DNA of 32,000 nt from Geotalea daltonii FRC-32 (GCF_000022265.1 NC_011979.1:1140001-1172000); one strand, 5' to 3'; positions 14,710-28,472 are shown, counted from the first letter of the stretch. Numbers and translations are program-made. The notes: a model not told the origin generated them from the letters alone.

Positions 14710-14867
14710 TTTTCCAATAAAGCCTCCCCCCTGACTTTGTCAGCCTGTTTCAGGCAGCCTTTCCCCCCCTCAATTAACATTCCTCATTAAATACTTATGG
14801 CACTCAAAATGCTATAACGGGTCATTCGGAATTGTTTTTGCCAGAAAAATGGTCAAGAAACAAATAG

Positions 14868-15033
14868 CTAGTGTCCCGTGCGGTTAGTTCACCGCAAGAA
14901 TTCTGAGGGATTTTGGTTACTGGCAAGGCGCGGCGACGCAGGCCTAGCAGGGCCTAAGCCAAGGAGATGCAACGCAGCCAGGGGCCAAAAGAGCCAGAAT
15001 TGTAAGGAATGATTTAACCGATCGGGACACTAG
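14868..15033 (-). mobile_element. MITE-like element family A, 166 bp, with CTAG at both ends
   Basis: ctagtgtcccgtgcgg...ccgatcgggacactag is the near-identical reverse complement of 28307-28472. Confidence 0.85.
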
Positions 15034-15152
15034 TTACTTCGACAGGCGTTGCCGCTTGATGAATTGATTCGGCGTATTAACGGGTCACCAGGATTTTCAT
15101 GCTATTTAACGTAAATGTGAAAGAGGTTAAATTTCTCGAAGGAGGAACGCAG

Positions 15153-18100
15153 ATGGCAAAGCGAACAGCCGTAAAGGCCCGGGCATGGTTCGGGCAGCAG
15201 ATCGCACTCCTGTGCCTATTGCTCATATCAGTGGGCAGTGCCTGGGGCGCAGAGATGGTAACCAACGGTGCTTTCAGTGGCAGCGCCGGCTGGACATTCA
15301 GTACCGCCACCTATGACAGCACCACAGGCAGAAGTGCTAATGGTTCAGCCAAACTGTACATTGCGGCAAGAAACACAGCCACCGCCGGTACAGTGACTCA
15401 GTCGGTTTCCATTCCTGCCGGGTCAGTCATCAATGCTGTGGCCTTGTATTCCCAGTTGACCACCAATTATGAAACTGCAGGCGACAACATATCGGTAGAC
15501 CTGCGCTATGAAGATGCCACCACCGTCAACATTTTCAGTTCCGGTGAGCTTACCAACAGCTCTTGGACTGTGCGCAATGGTGCCGGTGTCACCTTAGCGC
15601 AGAATGTCAATCAGATTATCATCACCATGAACACCAAGGCGGGCAATAATGCGGCAGCAAACGCTTCCCTGTGGGTGGACGACCTGTCCATCAGCTACAC
15701 AGCGTCAAACAACGGTACTACTCCCGGCGCAATGACGTCCTTCGGCGCCACGGATAAACAGATCAGCATCCAAGTCGCCTTCACAGGCGATGATGATAAC
15801 GATAACAGTTGTGTCATTGCCTACGGCACTACTCCTGGTAACTACAACTTTACGGCGCCGGCGCCGGTGAAAGGTGCAGGTATTTACACCACCACCGTCA
15901 GCGGCCTTACCCCCAATACCCCCTATTATTTCCAAGCCACTTTTACAGATCCAGACAACACTCCCGGCACGGTGACCGGTACATTCTCCACGACCCCGCC
16001 TCTTTCGGACCCTCTGCTGCACAACAGCATCAACCTTGGCGCCAAGTACTGGTCGGCCAGCAGCGGTTGGGGTGTTGCCGGTGGTCAGTATGGAGAGTTC
16101 ACCTGTACCACCTGTCATAATCGAAACACCGGTAACATAAAAAGGGTAGTGGGTTCGATACCTGCCACCATCGGTACGGCAGTAGTGAAACCTGTAACAT
16201 ACCGCAACGTCACCGCCTTCGGTAACGATGCCGGCGGGCATACCACTTCGCAGCGCATCTGTGAAGTCTGCCACACCCAGACTACTGAGCATAAGTATAA
16301 CCAGACAACCGGCGACCTGAATCATAAGAACGCCAATTTAACGGACTGTACCTCCTGTCATGCCCACAACAAGTCCTTTGGTGCATCTTGTAACAGTTGC
16401 CACGGATATCCCCCCATCAACGCCACTCTTGGTACTGACGGTCTGGCCTCGCCTGCAACAGGCGTGCTGGTCTCCGGACAGGCTGGCGCCCATGCCACCC
16501 ACGTCAATGTCCGCGGAATGACCTGCGAAACCTGTCACCAGGGCTATACTCAAAACCCGATGGGGAATCAGACCCTGGAATTTGGTTTCAATATCAACGA
16601 AGGAACCATATCCGGATTCAAAGGCACCTTCAACGGCGGCAGTTTTGCCAGTAAAACGCCATATTCCCCTTACAGCAGCAACTCAACCTATACCGGCACG
16701 ACAGTCAACATGGCAACAGGCAACAACAATACCTGTTCCAACCTCTACTGTCACGGCGGATATGCAGGCAGCAACGGCTCCCTCACGGTTCCCTCCTGGA
16801 CCGCCGGTGCAACTGCCAAGGGTTGTGGTGCCTGCCACGGCGTCAGCCAGGCAACTCCTCCCACCTCCGGCAACCATGTCCGCCATACCGGAACGGCAAC
16901 GGGCAACATGGGCATTGCTTGTAGTGATTGTCACGGGACGCTTCCTGCCAATAATGCACATGTTAATGGCAATGTGGTAACAAGCCTGAATCCCGCATCG
17001 AAACTGCGGGCAAATGCCACTTACAAGGGCTTTGCCAACCAGTCTTCCGTAGCGCTCAGCTATGGCGCCTGTGCTGTTTACTGCCACAGCACGGTTCAGA
17101 ACTCGACGGCAACGGCGGTGGCGACTCCGACAGTGACGCCAGTATGGGGAGGCGCACCAATCGTCTCCTGCGACACCTCGGCATGCCACGGCAATCCACC
17201 GGCCAATGCCAACCATTCCACCCACGTAAATGCAGGCTACGAGTGTATTGTCTGTCATAATGCAGCGGGCAGGGACACTGCCAAGCATGCCGACTACAAC
17301 ATCGATGTTACCTTCAGCGGCGTTGCCGGTTCCGGCACCTACAGCCAATCCCCCAATGCCCCCGGCAACGGGTTCGGCACTTGTTCGGCGACGTACTGCC
17401 ACAACGGAGCAGCCAGTGCTCCCTCATGGAATGGCTCTTCCCTGCCGACTGATTGTACAGGATGCCATGGTAATGAAGTGACCGCGGCAACCAAGTTGAG
17501 TGGAGCTCACAATGCCCATCTGAACAATGCAAGCCAGGGGGGCGTCTTTACATGTAGTTCCTGCCACGCCCCGACTATTACCAATCCCAACAATAGAACG
17601 ATTACGAACAGCATTTCCCATGTCAACGGCATGCTCAACTACTCCGGTCTCTATGCGGGCAGGAACGCGACCTGTAGCAACATCTACTGCCACAGCACCG
17701 GCAAGGGCACCTTCGTCAATCCACCAACATGGGCCAGCGGCACAACCTTGGGTTGTAACGGCTGCCACGGCACCGGCGGCAATACAAGTGGTATGCCTTC
17801 ACCGGACGCCGTCGGCGTCAACAGCCACACCAAGCACCTGCCGACCCAGGACACCACCAAGTGCGTCTACTGTCACCGCACAACGGTCAACGGCACCAAC
17901 GCCATCATAACCGGCAGTCAGCACATCAATGCTGCACGCGATGTCCGCTTCAGCAAGCCCAATGCCTTCACCAACAACTCTGGTGCATATAATGCCGGCA
18001 ACAGGACCTGTTCGACCTCCTACTGCCACGGCACCGCAGCATCCGATGCCTGGGGTACCGCCGGTCCGCTGGCATGTAACAAGTGTCACGCCGGCAGTAA

Positions 18101-21100
18101 CGTCCTGCCCGGTGCCCATGGCATTCACTACAACACGGCAACTGTCGTCACCGGTCTCTACGGAGCGGCTCCCGGCAGCTCCAGCCAGAGTGCCACCGCC
18201 TACCAGTTTTCATGTTCAGCCTGCCACGGCACCGATGCCACTAAGCATGCCAACTACCCAGTGGCCAATGCATCCGATGCCACCATCTTCTTCGGATTCT
18301 CCTCCGCCGGCCGTGGACAGAACGCCACTAACGCCTATGTTGCCCAGGCAACCGGCTCCACCGACGCGGCTGGGTTCCAGTGGACCACCGGCGGTAACGG
18401 CAACTGTAGCGCCACCTACTGCCACAGCAACGCCCGCGGCAGTAACGGCGTAAGCGCATCGGTCAACTGGGGTATCACCGCCAGGGATGCGAGCTGCGGA
18501 ACCTGCCATGGCAACTCAACCACCACCATCGCCGGTAGCAACCCCGCCAGCACGCCCAGCATGCTCTCCGGTGCCCATAAGGCCCACATCTCTACAGTCT
18601 CTACCGGTGGCAGTTTTGCCTGTACCGACTGCCACGCTGACACCCTGAGCGGGAATACCACCATTGCCGCCAATGCTTATAACAAGCACGTCAACAAGTT
18701 CATCAACTACTCCGGCCGCTATGCCGGGAAGAACAAGACCTGTTCTACCTTCTATTGCCACAGTAACGGCAAGGGGGGTGCACCTGTAACTGCGCTGCCT
18801 GCCTGGACCAGCGGCACGACCCTTGGCTGTAACGGCTGCCACGGCTCCACCGGCAACGCCAGCGGTATGCCCACACCCGATGCCGTCGGCGTCAACAGCC
18901 ACACCAAGCACCTGCCGACCCAGGACACCACCAAGTGCGTCTACTGCCACAGGACCACCGTCAACGGCACCAACGCCATCATAACCGGCAGCCAGCACAT
19001 CAATGCTGCACGTGATGTCCGCTTCAGCAAGCCCAATGCCTTCACTAACAACTCTGGTGCATATAATGCCGGCAACAGGACCTGTTCGACCTCCTACTGC
19101 CACGGCACCGCAGCATCCGATGCCTGGGGTACCGCCGGTCCGCTTGCATGTAACAAGTGTCACGCTGGCAGTAACGTCCTGCCCGGTGCCCACGGCATTC
19201 ACTACAACACGGCAACTGTCGTCACCGGTCTCTACGGAGCGGCTCCCGGCAGCTCCAGCCAGAGTGCCACCGCCTACCAGTTTTCATGTTCAGCCTGCCA
19301 CGGCACCGATGCCGCTAAGCATGCCAACTACCCAGTGGCCGATGCATCCGATGCCACCATCTTCTTCGGATTCTCCTCCGCTGGCCGTGGCCAGAACGCC
19401 ACTAACGCCTATGTTGCCCAGGCAACCGGCTCCACCGACGCGGCTGGGTTCCAGTGGACCACCGGCGGTAACGGCAACTGTAGCGCCACCTACTGCCACA
19501 GCAACGCCCGCGGCAGCAACGGCGTAAGCGCATCCGTCAACTGGGGTATCACCGCCAGGGATGCGAGCTGCGGAACCTGCCATGGCAACTCAACCACCAC
19601 CATCGCCGGCAGCAACCCTGCCAGCACGCCCAATATGCTCTCCGGTGCCCACAAGGCCCACATAGTAGGAGTATCTACCGGCGGCGGCTTCGGTTGTGTT
19701 GACTGCCATGCAACTACGGTCAGCAGCAACACAACGATCGGGACAAGTCGCTACAATAAACATGTCAACAAGTTCGTTGATTACTCCGGCCTCTATGCAG
19801 GCAAGAACAAAACCTGCAGCAATATCTACTGCCACAGCACAGGCAGAGGCACCTTTGTCAATCCGCCCACCTGGGCAAGCGGCACAACCCTCGACTGTAG
19901 CGGCTGCCACGGCTCTACCTCCGCCAACCTCACCTCGGGCAGCCATAATGCCCACTTGGTCGCCGGTGCCACCTGCCAGAACTGCCACTGGAACACCACC
20001 CAGGCCAATGGTACAATTGTAGTCGTCGCCGAACACATCAGCAGAACAGTCGGCGTCAATCAAGGCAGTACCTTTAAATCGGCCGCCGTCAGCTTCACCG
20101 GTACCACGAGCTGTTCGGCAATTTCCTGTCACAGCAACGGCACCTCCGGCGGGGCAGCTGCAGCAACCTGGGGCGGTACCCTCAAATGTGACGGCTGCCA
20201 TCCCAATCTCTCCGCCGCCCACACGGTTCACGCCAACCTGAACCTGAGCACCGGCGTCACCTTCTACAACTATACCGCCATCAAGTCCACCGGTTCCGAG
20301 GCGGTCAACGGCGTCAAGTACGGCTTCGGCTGCGGTACCTGTCATCCACTGGTGGAATCGACCTACCATATGGACGGCAGCGTCGAGGTACAACTTGATC
20401 CGGCCACCGTCGGCGCCGGCGCCCTGCGCCAGAAAAACGGCGTCGGCGCAATAATGAACGGTGACAAGAGCTGTGATATGGTCTACTGCCACAGTGACGG
20501 CAAAAACACCATGGTTGCATCCGGCAACGGCCATGCACCTGTCTGGACGACCACCTTTGCAGCCCTCGGTGGCGACCGTTGTGCCAAGTGCCACGGCAAC
20601 TCCCCGCAGACCTCAGCCCACGACGCACACCAGGTCGGCATTCACTACAATAACATCTACAACGGGACGTCCGGCAAGCTGGCTGCTGGTGCAAGTGGCT
20701 CTTCCAGCCATGGTGTAGCAGGCCAGTCAACCACCATCACCTGTAACATCTGTCACAACAAAACTATGACTGCCGCGGCAAATGACCAGAACGCCCTCTG
20801 TAACACCTGCCACACCAAGGGTGTCAATGGCGCATTGGTTAAGGGTAATGCCAAAATTGCCGATTTCTCCTTCCACGTCAACGGCAAGAAAGAAATCGCC
20901 TTCCTGCCTTCGCTCAAGGTCGTCTCGAAGGCACAGCTCAGACAGACCAGCTTCTCCAACTACTCCGGTCTCTGGGTACGTAACGGCGGCAACTACAAGA
21001 ACGGCGTTAACGCCTTCGACACCGCCAAAACCGCTTTTGCGGACAACATGTGGAACTCGACGGCAGGTACCTGCTCCAACATCTCCTGTCACAACCTGAG

Positions 21101-21167
21101 AGTAGGCGAGGCCGTCAACTGGACCGACACCACCATCAGTTGTAATTCCTGTCACAGCAAGTTGTAA
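15153..21167 (+). CDS. Secreted giant multihaem c-type cytochrome with repeated CX4CH...CXXCH modules (Geobacter-type repeat family)
   Basis: The ATG at 15153 has a ggagg RBS. The signal peptide is ...LLCLLLISVGSAWG/AE. A CBM-like beta-sandwich (NGAFSGSAGW...) and an FN3-like domain (...SGLTPNTPYYFQATF) follow. Manual count then gives 30 CXXCH and 14 CX3-4CH motifs, many followed by an H-x2-H. Confidence 0.9.
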   Translation: MAKRTAVKARAWFGQQIALLCLLLISVGSAWGAEMVTNGAFSGSAGWTFSTATYDSTTGRSANGSAKLYIAARNTATAGTVTQSVSIPAGSVINAVALYSQLTTNYETAGDNISVDLRYEDATTVNIFSSGELTNSSWTVRNGAGVTLAQNVNQIIITMNTKAGNNAAANASLWVDDLSISYTASNNGTTPGAMTSFGATDKQISIQVAFTGDDDNDNSCVIAYGTTPGNYNFTAPAPVKGAGIYTTTVSGLTPNTPYYFQATFTDPDNTPGTVTGTFSTTPPLSDPLLHNSINLGAKYWSASSGWGVAGGQYGEFTCTTCHNRNTGNIKRVVGSIPATIGTAVVKPVTYRNVTAFGNDAGGHTTSQRICEVCHTQTTEHKYNQTTGDLNHKNANLTDCTSCHAHNKSFGASCNSCHGYPPINATLGTDGLASPATGVLVSGQAGAHATHVNVRGMTCETCHQGYTQNPMGNQTLEFGFNINEGTISGFKGTFNGGSFASKTPYSPYSSNSTYTGTTVNMATGNNNTCSNLYCHGGYAGSNGSLTVPSWTAGATAKGCGACHGVSQATPPTSGNHVRHTGTATGNMGIACSDCHGTLPANNAHVNGNVVTSLNPASKLRANATYKGFANQSSVALSYGACAVYCHSTVQNSTATAVATPTVTPVWGGAPIVSCDTSACHGNPPANANHSTHVNAGYECIVCHNAAGRDTAKHADYNIDVTFSGVAGSGTYSQSPNAPGNGFGTCSATYCHNGAASAPSWNGSSLPTDCTGCHGNEVTAATKLSGAHNAHLNNASQGGVFTCSSCHAPTITNPNNRTITNSISHVNGMLNYSGLYAGRNATCSNIYCHSTGKGTFVNPPTWASGTTLGCNGCHGTGGNTSGMPSPDAVGVNSHTKHLPTQDTTKCVYCHRTTVNGTNAIITGSQHINAARDVRFSKPNAFTNNSGAYNAGNRTCSTSYCHGTAASDAWGTAGPLACNKCHAGSNVLPGAHGIHYNTATVVTGLYGAAPGSSSQSATAYQFSCSACHGTDATKHANYPVANASDATIFFGFSSAGRGQNATNAYVAQATGSTDAAGFQWTTGGNGNCSATYCHSNARGSNGVSASVNWGITARDASCGTCHGNSTTTIAGSNPASTPSMLSGAHKAHISTVSTGGSFACTDCHADTLSGNTTIAANAYNKHVNKFINYSGRYAGKNKTCSTFYCHSNGKGGAPVTALPAWTSGTTLGCNGCHGSTGNASGMPTPDAVGVNSHTKHLPTQDTTKCVYCHRTTVNGTNAIITGSQHINAARDVRFSKPNAFTNNSGAYNAGNRTCSTSYCHGTAASDAWGTAGPLACNKCHAGSNVLPGAHGIHYNTATVVTGLYGAAPGSSSQSATAYQFSCSACHGTDAAKHANYPVADASDATIFFGFSSAGRGQNATNAYVAQATGSTDAAGFQWTTGGNGNCSATYCHSNARGSNGVSASVNWGITARDASCGTCHGNSTTTIAGSNPASTPNMLSGAHKAHIVGVSTGGGFGCVDCHATTVSSNTTIGTSRYNKHVNKFVDYSGLYAGKNKTCSNIYCHSTGRGTFVNPPTWASGTTLDCSGCHGSTSANLTSGSHNAHLVAGATCQNCHWNTTQANGTIVVVAEHISRTVGVNQGSTFKSAAVSFTGTTSCSAISCHSNGTSGGAAAATWGGTLKCDGCHPNLSAAHTVHANLNLSTGVTFYNYTAIKSTGSEAVNGVKYGFGCGTCHPLVESTYHMDGSVEVQLDPATVGAGALRQKNGVGAIMNGDKSCDMVYCHSDGKNTMVASGNGHAPVWTTTFAALGGDRCAKCHGNSPQTSAHDAHQVGIHYNNIYNGTSGKLAAGASGSSSHGVAGQSTTITCNICHNKTMTAAANDQNALCNTCHTKGVNGALVKGNAKIADFSFHVNGKKEIAFLPSLKVVSKAQLRQTSFSNYSGLWVRNGGNYKNGVNAFDTAKTAFADNMWNSTAGTCSNISCHNLRVGEAVNWTDTTISCNSCHSKL
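17790..19663 (+). repeat. In-frame tandem duplication inside the cytochrome gene: 17790-18589 is repeated at 18864-19663 (period 1074 bp = 358 codons)
   Basis: The two 800-bp blocks differ at only a few positions by eye. The protein block GMP(S/T)PDAVGVNSHTKHLPTQ...SGAHKAHI occurs twice. Confidence 0.95.
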
Positions 21168-21194
21168 TCGGAACCAAATAACCAGCAGCACAAA

Positions 21195-21227
21195 GAAAGG
21201 CCGGAGAAATCCGGCCTTTCTTTTTTT
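21195..21227 (+). terminator. Rho-independent terminator of the cytochrome gene
   Basis: The stem is gaaaggccgga-gaaa-tccggcctttc (11 bp), followed by ttttttt. It begins 28 nt after the stop codon. Confidence 0.85.
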
Positions 21228-21324: not shown

Positions 21325-21789
21325 TTAAAAGCACCCCAGCTGGCATTGCTTGATTTTATACTTCTGAACATTGGCTGCTTCGGCGACGGCCATCGGTTTG
21401 ACCTTTAGTTCACGGGCGAGGGCAGCGGCGGCGGTACAGGTGAACTCTCCCTTTTCACCGAGGGCTGCGACCCGGCGGGCCACTTCTTCGGTGAATGGTT
21501 CCTTTACCGTGCCGGCATGGGCGGTCTTGCTCACCTTGAAACAGCCGAGCTGGCAGTCGGTGATGCGGAGTCCGAGCCTGTCGATCATGGCGCCGACGGC
21601 AAGGCGGGAAACGCCGGCATCGGCAGCGATTTTCCAGGCTGACGGACAGGGAACGTAGCCGTCCCTGGCGGCGCTCCTGACTGCTGTCTCCAAATTTTTG
21701 AGGGCTTCCTGTGAGAGATTATCGGGGTTTTCGGGCAGGTTTATCCTGCCCTTTTTCTTTTGACGGTCGGCATCGTTGAAGTCGCGCAT
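21325..21789 (-). CDS. Small Cys-motif protein of unknown function with two internal repeats, each ending in CQLGCF
   Basis: The ATG at 21789 is preceded by agaggaa. The two repeats are ...CPSAWKIAADAGVSRLAVGAMIDRLGLRITDCQLGCF and ...CTAAAALARELKVKPMAVAEAANVQKYKIKQCQLGCF. Confidence 0.6.
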   Translation of the reverse strand: MRDFNDADRQKKKGRINLPENPDNLSQEALKNLETAVRSAARDGYVPCPSAWKIAADAGVSRLAVGAMIDRLGLRITDCQLGCFKVSKTAHAGTVKEPFTEEVARRVAALGEKGEFTCTAAAALARELKVKPMAVAEAANVQKYKIKQCQLGCF

Positions 21790-21881
21790 GGGGTTCCTCT
21801 TTCTGCATCGGTTGCTGTATAAAAACATTGTTTTATGTGTCCGATGAAATAGCGCCAACCGCACGATTTGTCAAGGGAAGA

Positions 21882-28180: not shown

Positions 28181-28310
28181 TAGCTGGTTTCCATCCGGAA
28201 AGGGTTCTTTTCTGCCCTGGCGGCGTCAATCTGCGGGCTTACTTGTGCGACGTACCGATGTACGTCTCCGCGCAAGTCCCTGATTTCCTCGCTTTCCGGA
28301 TGGAACCTAG
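28181..28310. mobile_element. MITE-like element family C, about 130 bp and highly structured
   Basis: The terminal inverted repeats are ggtttccatccggaaag and ctttccggatggaacc. Internal hairpins are gacgtac-cgat-gtacgtc and acttgtgcg...cgcgcaagt. Its right CTAG is shared with the next element. Confidence 0.6.
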
Positions 28311-28472
28311 TATCCCGATCGGTTAATTCATTCCTTACAATTCTGGCTCTTTTGGCCCCTGGCTGCGTTGCGTCTCCTTGGCTTAGGCCCTGCTAGGCCT
28401 GCGTCGCCGCGCCTTGCCAGGAACCAAAATCCCTCAGAATTCTTGCGGTGAACTAACCGCACGGGACACTAG
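28307..28472 (+). mobile_element. MITE-like element family A, 166 bp, with CTAG at both ends
   Basis: ctagtatcccgatcgg...ccgcacgggacactag is the reverse complement of 14868-15033 with a few mismatches. Confidence 0.85.

Follow-up and report, generated by a model that had tools for sequence, protein, structure and literature searches.

A 44-haem-motif cytochrome of the CxxxxCH/CxxCH family with a haem-free N-terminal head in Geotalea daltonii FRC-32

Introduction

Metal-respiring Desulfuromonadia possess giant CxxxxCH/CxxCH cytochromes in abundance. These proteins account for a large share of the haem investment, and none of them has been purified, solved or located. A survey of 84 Desulfuromonadia genomes reported up to 87 haem motifs per polypeptide, and it placed the 27-haem protein of Geobacter metallireducens, OmcA/GSU2884, OmcG and OmcH in this family, with the prediction that they lie outside the cell as long single-chain wires in which Fe-Fe distances stay below 15 Angstrom (PMC11492766). 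We analysed a 32,000-nucleotide (nt) stretch of DNA from Geotalea daltonii FRC-32 (NC_011979.1:1140001-1172000; the window), in which an open frame at 15099..21167 on the plus strand contains an ATG at 15153 and encodes a 2004-amino acid (aa) c-type cytochrome of this family with 44 haem motifs. The genome is a complete contig (C1) of 4,304,501 bp with 53.5% G+C.

The protein shares its repeat domain, cap-array-cap order, signal peptide and giant size with the 44-motif family members of Geobacter argillaceus and Geobacter sp. OR-1, whereas it differs from most 44-motif orthologues by an additional N-terminal head, predicted to consist of a jelly-roll domain and a fibronectin type III (FN3)-like domain. 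As in the dodecahaem protein GSU1996 (PDB 3OV0/3OUE), c7-type domains appear to be chained in one polypeptide, and GSU1996 fragments were among the weak matches of a profile search (3oue, E 0.009; 3ov0, E 0.65). The protein presumably shares its function with the OmcS, OmcE and OmcZ nanowires, in which an unbroken line of haems serves electron transfer over long distances outside the cell (PMC11492766). Those wires are filaments of small subunits with 4-8 haems each, whereas the chain of the studied protein would be one covalent polypeptide of fixed length, and it has no sequence relationship to them. With the decahaem cytochromes MtrC/OmcA/MtrF it has in common a match to PF22113 and the mixing of haem domains with beta-sandwich domains, but it has no neighbouring porin or MtrA/MtrB-type partner, and its haem count and repeat organisation are different.

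The results below place the protein, as an ordinary member, in a family that is catalogued and widespread; it is neither a new kind of cytochrome nor the carrier of a new principle, and we regard a role as an exported, electron-carrying wire as likely. What the analysis adds is a c7-type unit with a bookkeeping of its ligands, support for the fold of the head together with its rarity, a gene-conversion reading of the central array, and a conserved, putative sigma-54-type promoter interrupted by a repeat resembling a miniature inverted-repeat transposable element (MITE).

Family assignment and coding sequence

15153..21167 (stop codon included), plus strand: coding sequence of the 2004-aa c-type cytochrome with 44 haem motifs, from the open reading frame (ORF) call, motif count and family matches
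15140..15145, plus strand: Shine-Dalgarno sequence AGGAGG with the ATG 7 nt further on, read from the sequence and conserved in both orthologous loci
15153..15251, plus strand: Sec-type signal peptide, residues 1-33, with a basic N-region, a hydrophobic core and the junction SAWG/AEMV, without a lipobox, read from the sequence

A preliminary description of this DNA had assigned the protein to the CxxxxCH/CxxCH repeat family, and hidden Markov model searches confirmed this assignment. TIGR01904 ('CxxxxCH/CxxCH domain c-type cytochrome', NCBIfam) matched 13 stretches with 359.9 bits against a cut-off of 27 bits (E 3.5e-110), and PF09698 (GSu_C4xC__C2xCH, Pfam) matched 10 stretches with 154.4 bits against a cut-off of 21.7 (E 1.1e-45). 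Over the whole protein, Pfam also matched Cytochrome_C7 (PF14522; E 1.4e-33), Cytochrom_c3_2 (E 3.5e-17) and, above its cut-off, the MtrC/MtrF pentahaem domain II/IV (PF22113; E 9e-23). The arrangement that defines the family was present: 13 CX4CH motifs and one CX3CH motif stand in tandem, each followed 15-29 aa on by a CXXCH, except in one unit where the next motif is CX4CH instead.

The motif tally of 30 CXXCH, 13 CX4CH and one CX3CH (CAVYCH, residue 640), which had been counted by hand, was reproduced exactly by a regular-expression count. These motifs take up 88 of the 90 Cys of the protein, and its His also number 90. When the residues were shuffled (2000 shuffles), the mean was 0.17 for CXXCH and 0.37 for CX3-4CH, with a maximum of 3 each.

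The motif number is not exceptional for the family. In this genome, the family domain occurs in 12 giant open frames, whose haem motifs range from 19 to 53 per frame and total about 420, and three of the giants other than the studied one have at least 44. Of 121 genomes sampled from the order, 88 contained the CxxxxCH/CxxCH domain, representing 26 of 32 genera. Among the best 120 homologues, the motif numbers reached 82 and peaked at 35 (26 proteins) and at 44 (27 proteins); the former peak agrees with a peak at 35 in the published survey (PMC11492766). The rarity of the protein had thus been overrated at first, as 44 motifs is a modal value of the family and lies well under the published maximum of 87 (PMC11492766).

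The 2004-aa product with its start at 15153 was accepted because the ribosome-binding site is conserved in two orthologous loci. In homologues, a conserved AEMVTNG starts right behind the hydrophobic leader, and for this reason cleavage of the signal peptide is predicted to occur before AEMVTNG. The ratio of nonsynonymous to synonymous substitution rates (dN/dS) of the gene was 0.127 overall in comparison with a 79%-identical orthologue and 0.08-0.15 in every region, including the head; the gene is intact, conserved and under purifying selection. Overlapping ORFs in other frames were read as by-products of the repetitive, G+C-rich coding frame.

Organisation of the haem array

16038..16472, plus strand: tetrahaem head of the array, CXXCH at residues 318, 370, 399 and 413, preceded by the invariant His290 (LLHNS motif), from Pfam Cytochrom_c3_2 over residues 364-417 and conservation
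16473..21164, plus strand: thirteen stretched c7/c3-type trihaem units, HxxH - CXXCH - (His) - CX3/4CH - CXXCH, from Pfam Cytochrome_C7, TIGR01904 and module alignments

In cytochromes c7 and c3, the HxxH pair provides the distal ligands of two different haems, and cytochrome c3 attaches its haems II and IV through CX4CH. The repeat of the studied protein had been described as a module of CX4CH, CXXCH and HxxH. This module is real but incomplete, since a third haem site, the CXXCH that comes after HxxH, had been omitted. The spacings proved somewhat wider than described, with 15-29 aa between CX4CH and CXXCH and 9-22 aa between CXXCH and HxxH.

When the units were phased with HxxH first, 7 of 10 spanned positions 2-66 of the 67 positions of Pfam Cytochrome_C7 (E 6.5e-7 to 2e-3). 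Only 3 of the 10 single units exceeded the 24.8-bit cut-off of this model on their own, one unit matched class III cytochrome c (PF02085), and single units matched PF22113 only below its cut-off. The end-to-end match of HxxH-first units to the c7 model led to a division of the array into a tetrahaem head and thirteen trihaem units. The last of these has a fourth haem site, the array finishing with CX4CH...CXXCH, and the sites add up as 4 + 12x3 + 4 = 44. These alignments suggest that a stretched c7/c3-type trihaem unit describes the repeat better than a CX4CH-CXXCH-HxxH module does. Like cytochrome c7 (PpcA family) and c3, each unit has a putative HxxH distal pair followed by three haem sites; unlike in c7, the units are 100-130 aa long rather than about 70, the middle haem would sit on a CX4CH as in c3, and there are 13 units instead of 1 or 4.

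Conservation of haem sites and candidate ligands

Conservation was assessed in an alignment of 23 colinear orthologues, the most distant of them about 30% identical. Conservation of at least 90% was found for every motif Cys (88) and every motif His (44) and for 38 of the 46 His outside the motifs, and the alignment contained no conserved Met. H1347 and H1350 are the copies, in the second of two nine-haem cassettes described below, of the invariant H989 and H992, and their low scores come from misalignment only. Exactly nine invariant non-motif His were counted within one nine-haem cassette, one of them belonging to the preceding unit, and across the family the number of His is about twice the number of motifs. 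The His assigned as candidate distal ligands are those of the HxxH pairs and the one located about 18 residues ahead of each CX4CH. This pattern suggests that all 44 sites are probably occupied by haem, and it indirectly supports the proposal that HxxH supplies distal ligands.

The haem-free N-terminal head

15252..15737, plus strand: D1, haem-free jelly-roll-type beta-sandwich, residues 34-195, by fold similar to a carbohydrate-binding module (CBM) or MAM domain, from an AlphaFold2 model with mostly strands (block predicted local distance difference test, pLDDT, 62-89) and Foldseek
15738..16037, plus strand: D2, FN3-like beta-sandwich, residues 196-295, from a near-threshold Pfam match, Foldseek and fn3 in relatives

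Residues 34-295 contain no haem motif, and the AlphaFold2 model from a 12-sequence alignment was all-beta with two domains (mean pLDDT 72). In Foldseek searches of the PDB, the model matched the CBM-bearing xanthanase 6fhn (E 1.3e-7), Endo-D 2w91, the MAM-Ig structures 2c9a/8a1f and the CBM4-Ig pair 3k4z, together with many FN3 tandems at E 1e-4. The template-modelling scores were only 0.3-0.36, as expected with a two-domain query with flexible ends. The Pfam search of the head returned no CBM family, even at E values up to 10, its best match being the X25 pullulanase domain (E 0.043). In D2, Pur_ac_phosph_N, which has an FN3-type fold, scored 29.1 bits (E 1.5e-6), just below its 30-bit cut-off, and relatives of D2 matched the fn3 model PF00041. 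The earlier view of a CBM-like plus FN3-like head therefore holds at the level of the fold, with the FN3 match staying below threshold, but not as membership of a CBM sequence family. The models support a head made of a jelly-roll and an FN3-like domain, with sugar binding as a hypothetical function.

D1 is a rare domain. An exhaustive search of 1.84 billion cluster representatives returned 133 relatives of the head, about 25 of which concern D1. Among 24 D1 relatives examined, 15 were multihaem cytochromes with D1 right behind the signal peptide, and others paired D1 with fn3, Big_5, cadherin-like, MAM or PA14 domains; in the ten relatives scanned for it, no glycoside hydrolase was fused to D1. 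This repertoire of partner domains appears typical of extracellular adhesion-type proteins. The dN/dS of D1 was 0.089. The head was shared only with a same-genus orthologue (73% identity, 2039-aa frame), two metagenome orthologues and three paralogues of this genome, and it was missing from the 44-motif orthologues of other genera (86% coverage).

Central cassettes and array length

17619..18692, plus strand: nine-haem cassette A, residues 823-1180, three trihaem units, from repeat analysis, tree and alignment
18693..19766, plus strand: nine-haem cassette B, residues 1181-1538, protein 90% identical to cassette A, from repeat analysis and tree
17890..18560, plus strand: core of the putative conversion tract, 671 nt, DNA 97.6% identical to 18964-19634 (offset 1074), from DNA comparison

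The cassette repeat was characterised with a script, as its period of 1074 exceeds the limit of Tandem Repeats Finder. Over a wider tract of 1022 nt, the two cassettes showed 94 differences, 61 of them at third codon positions. In the orthologues, cassettes A and B were 76-82% identical between species and 90-91% identical within each protein. A maximum-likelihood tree gave the same picture, in which the flanking cassettes clustered by position (support 100/100) and A and B paired by species (98/91, 99/97 and 90/84). The presence of both cassettes in the orthologues, together with this pairing, led to the rejection of a very recent duplication. These patterns point to homogenisation of cassettes A and B by gene conversion, that is, to concerted evolution.

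Among the 120 best homologues, the family members had identical end caps and the motif order 22222-[422]n-2-42, differing from each other by whole '422' units. Array length would therefore change through the gain or loss of units. The two modes of 35 and 44 motifs are one nine-haem cassette apart.

Promoter candidate, leader and gene neighbourhood

14798..14813, plus strand: sigma-54-type -24/-12 promoter candidate, TGGCAC-N5-ATGCT, GG at 14799-14800 and GC at 14811-14812, from consensus score and conservation
14868..15033, no strand assigned: 166-bp MITE-like repeat in the 5' leader, between promoter candidate and ribosome-binding site, missing from both orthologues in the upstream alignments
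21192..21223, plus strand: intrinsic-terminator-like hairpin of 14 pairs followed by a T-run, 25 nt past the stop codon, from the sequence

The promoter candidate, TGGCACTCAAAATGCT, reached 10/12 on comparison with the consensus; in this genome, 0.017 elements of such quality are expected per 500 nt. Both orthologues, the one in L013 (TGGCACCAAAAGTGCT) and the one in the same-genus genome G036 (TGGCACCAATAGTGCT), have the element and its AT-rich flank conserved in their upstream regions. The genome contains rpoN, and control of the gene by sigma-54 is a plausible reading of this conserved element. In this genome alone, the leader measures about 340 nt instead of about 190 nt, owing to the inserted MITE-like repeat. 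Full-length copies of this CTAG-ended 166-bp repeat number about 12 across the genome, with 80-100% identity. A second copy within the window, at 28307-28472 (genome 1168307-1168472), is 97.6% identical and lies in the opposite orientation.

Some Geobacter cytochrome genes are preceded by GEMM/cyclic di-GMP (c-di-GMP) or cyclic GMP-AMP (cGAMP) riboswitches. The 443-nt leader of the studied gene gave no Rfam match, relaxed thresholds included, and hence neither of these riboswitches; an Rfam search of the whole window also returned nothing.

The gene appears to be monocistronic. Its upstream neighbour is a cooS-cooC-cooF-oxidoreductase operon, its other neighbours are unrelated genes, and the neighbours are entirely different in both orthologous loci. 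A functional link with this CO-dehydrogenase operon was rejected, since 443 nt that include the promoter candidate of the cytochrome gene itself lie in between and neither orthologous locus shows the link. Just downstream, a 179-aa ORF without a Pfam match lies on the minus strand at 21325-21864.

Proposed role and alternatives

The combined results make it likely, in our judgement, that the protein is an exported, electron-carrying wire of 44 haems, most likely placed on or outside the cell surface and tethered by its head. A c-type cytochrome of about 228 kDa (holo) would be exported by Sec and would bear 44 covalent haems, almost all of them bis-His and about one per 38 residues. With the haems closely packed, electrons could hop without a break along one polypeptide, making it a 'monomeric wire' with a length of some tens of nanometres. 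Such a chain may transport respiratory electrons past the inner membrane or store them there, most likely at the cell surface or outside it, and the haem-free head may be what fixes the chain to a partner, a mineral or a surface polymer. The analysis itself shows the motifs, family membership, conservation with purifying selection and, at the level of models, the folds of the domains; haem occupancy, wire geometry, extracellular location, the ligand of the head and control by sigma-54 are what we infer here. The extracellular location is favoured because of the fold of the head, which is that of CBM-, MAM- and FN3-type extracellular modules, and because of the predictions in the literature.

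Several results weigh against this proposal. Sequence searches of the PDB found no relative of solved structure, and profile searches gave only weak, CXXCH-driven matches, the best of which were to reaction-centre cytochromes (E 6e-5). The AlphaFold2 model of a nine-haem cassette (22-sequence alignment) reached a pLDDT of 36, which is unusable for wire geometry. Because one of the nine invariant His of a cassette belongs to the preceding unit, one haem per cassette has no invariant distal His as its sixth ligand. No porin, secretion or maturation gene is adjacent, so that the neighbourhood is not of the porin-cytochrome/Mtr type; with no lipobox and a gene context that is not conserved, the head domains are the only pointers to location. 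A hematite-binding-type peptide motif was looked for in the protein and not found.

In an alternative that we consider unlikely, the protein does not leave the periplasm or cell envelope and acts mainly as an electron capacitor (44 electrons per molecule) or as a bridge across the periplasm. Such a location fits the Sec signal as the only visible signal, with no lipobox and no adjacent secretion system or porin. The published survey gives electron storage among the reasons for proteins with very many haems, whose length, it notes, exceeds the width of the periplasm (PMC11492766). Against this alternative stand the jelly-roll plus FN3 head, which is under purifying selection and of a kind typical for extracellular proteins of the adhesion type, the combination of its relatives with cadherin-like, Big_5, MAM and PA14 domains, and the published prediction that members of the family are extracellular (PMC11492766).

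An indirect role seems improbable. In G. sulfurreducens, OmcG and OmcH are reported to be required for making another outer-membrane cytochrome, OmcB, and not for direct reduction of the terminal acceptor (Kim et al. 2006, as summarised in PMC1950547 and PMC2825233); both belong to the same family as the studied protein (PMC11492766), which could act in the same way. This explanation leaves the 44 conserved haem sites and the length steps of three haems unaccounted for, and nothing in our analysis bears on the regulation of other cytochromes.

Still less probable is inactivation of the gene by the MITE insertion in its leader, which would make it a silent or decaying member of the set of twelve paralogues. 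The 166-bp repeat does part the promoter candidate from the gene in this genome only, and the genome has many paralogues, but the 6-kb frame is intact, with a dN/dS of 0.13 and every haem-site residue kept, and the Shine-Dalgarno sequence and the conserved proximal leader are intact as well. Binding of haem by the 30 CXXCH motifs only, with the CX3/4CH sites being structural or holding another metal, is the least credible explanation, given that the Cys and His of CX4CH are as invariant as those of CXXCH, the number of conserved extra His fits 44 haems rather than 30, and the Pfam c7 model aligns CX4CH as the middle haem site.

The proposal of an exported 44-haem wire can be extended, although only speculatively, to a single-polypeptide wire of tunable length. 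Its lectin- or adhesin-like head would anchor the wire to the surface of a partner or within the matrix of exopolysaccharide, the number of trihaem units would determine its length, unequal recombination would add or remove such units, and gene conversion would keep the central cassettes near-identical. If this rather doubtful picture were true, the twelve paralogues would be wires with different reach and anchors, each under its own control, here that of sigma-54.

The protein offers a well-defined test case, with a presumably culturable host, an apparently monocistronic gene, a clear c7-type unit and a near-complete assignment of putative ligands. Its separable haem-free head offers a testable ligand, and the near-identical cassette pair illustrates how arrays may change length.

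Paralogues, leader motif and haem-lyase genes

Giant paralogues occur in tandem at two places in the genome. Three of them, with 53, 35 and 44 motifs, lie at C1:4165841-4182880 on the minus strand, and two, with 27 and 44 motifs, lie at C1:1509051-1517117 on the plus strand. The 44-motif paralogue at 1512222-1517117 contains at least 5 domain pairs with an exact spacing of 594 nt and identical scores, that is, near-perfect tandem repeats.

Many family giants open with a conserved leader, MGK.I..K..G.....K..L......L.S.FMYQGWY(K/R)P, in which a hydrophobic stretch is followed by an invariant aromatic motif. It was found in this genome at C1:62591-67171 and 2969927-2976280 and in the homologues P0121, P0123, P0132, P0136, P0137 and P0140. 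This FMYQGWY-type leader has the look of an N-terminal signal dedicated to sorting or anchoring, whereas the studied protein has an ordinary signal peptide.

The genome also contains five haem-lyase paralogues of the CcsA/ResC type (PF01578). Two of these, at C1:70083-70670 (plus strand) and C1:3693648-3694244 (minus strand), lie about 3 kb downstream of giant-cytochrome paralogues, and a third abuts an 11-haem gene at 1580432. Haem-lyase paralogues near giant cytochromes may represent dedicated maturation systems. The giant paralogues linked to the first two, at 62591-67171 and 3697192-3701784, also bear heads similar to D1/D2.

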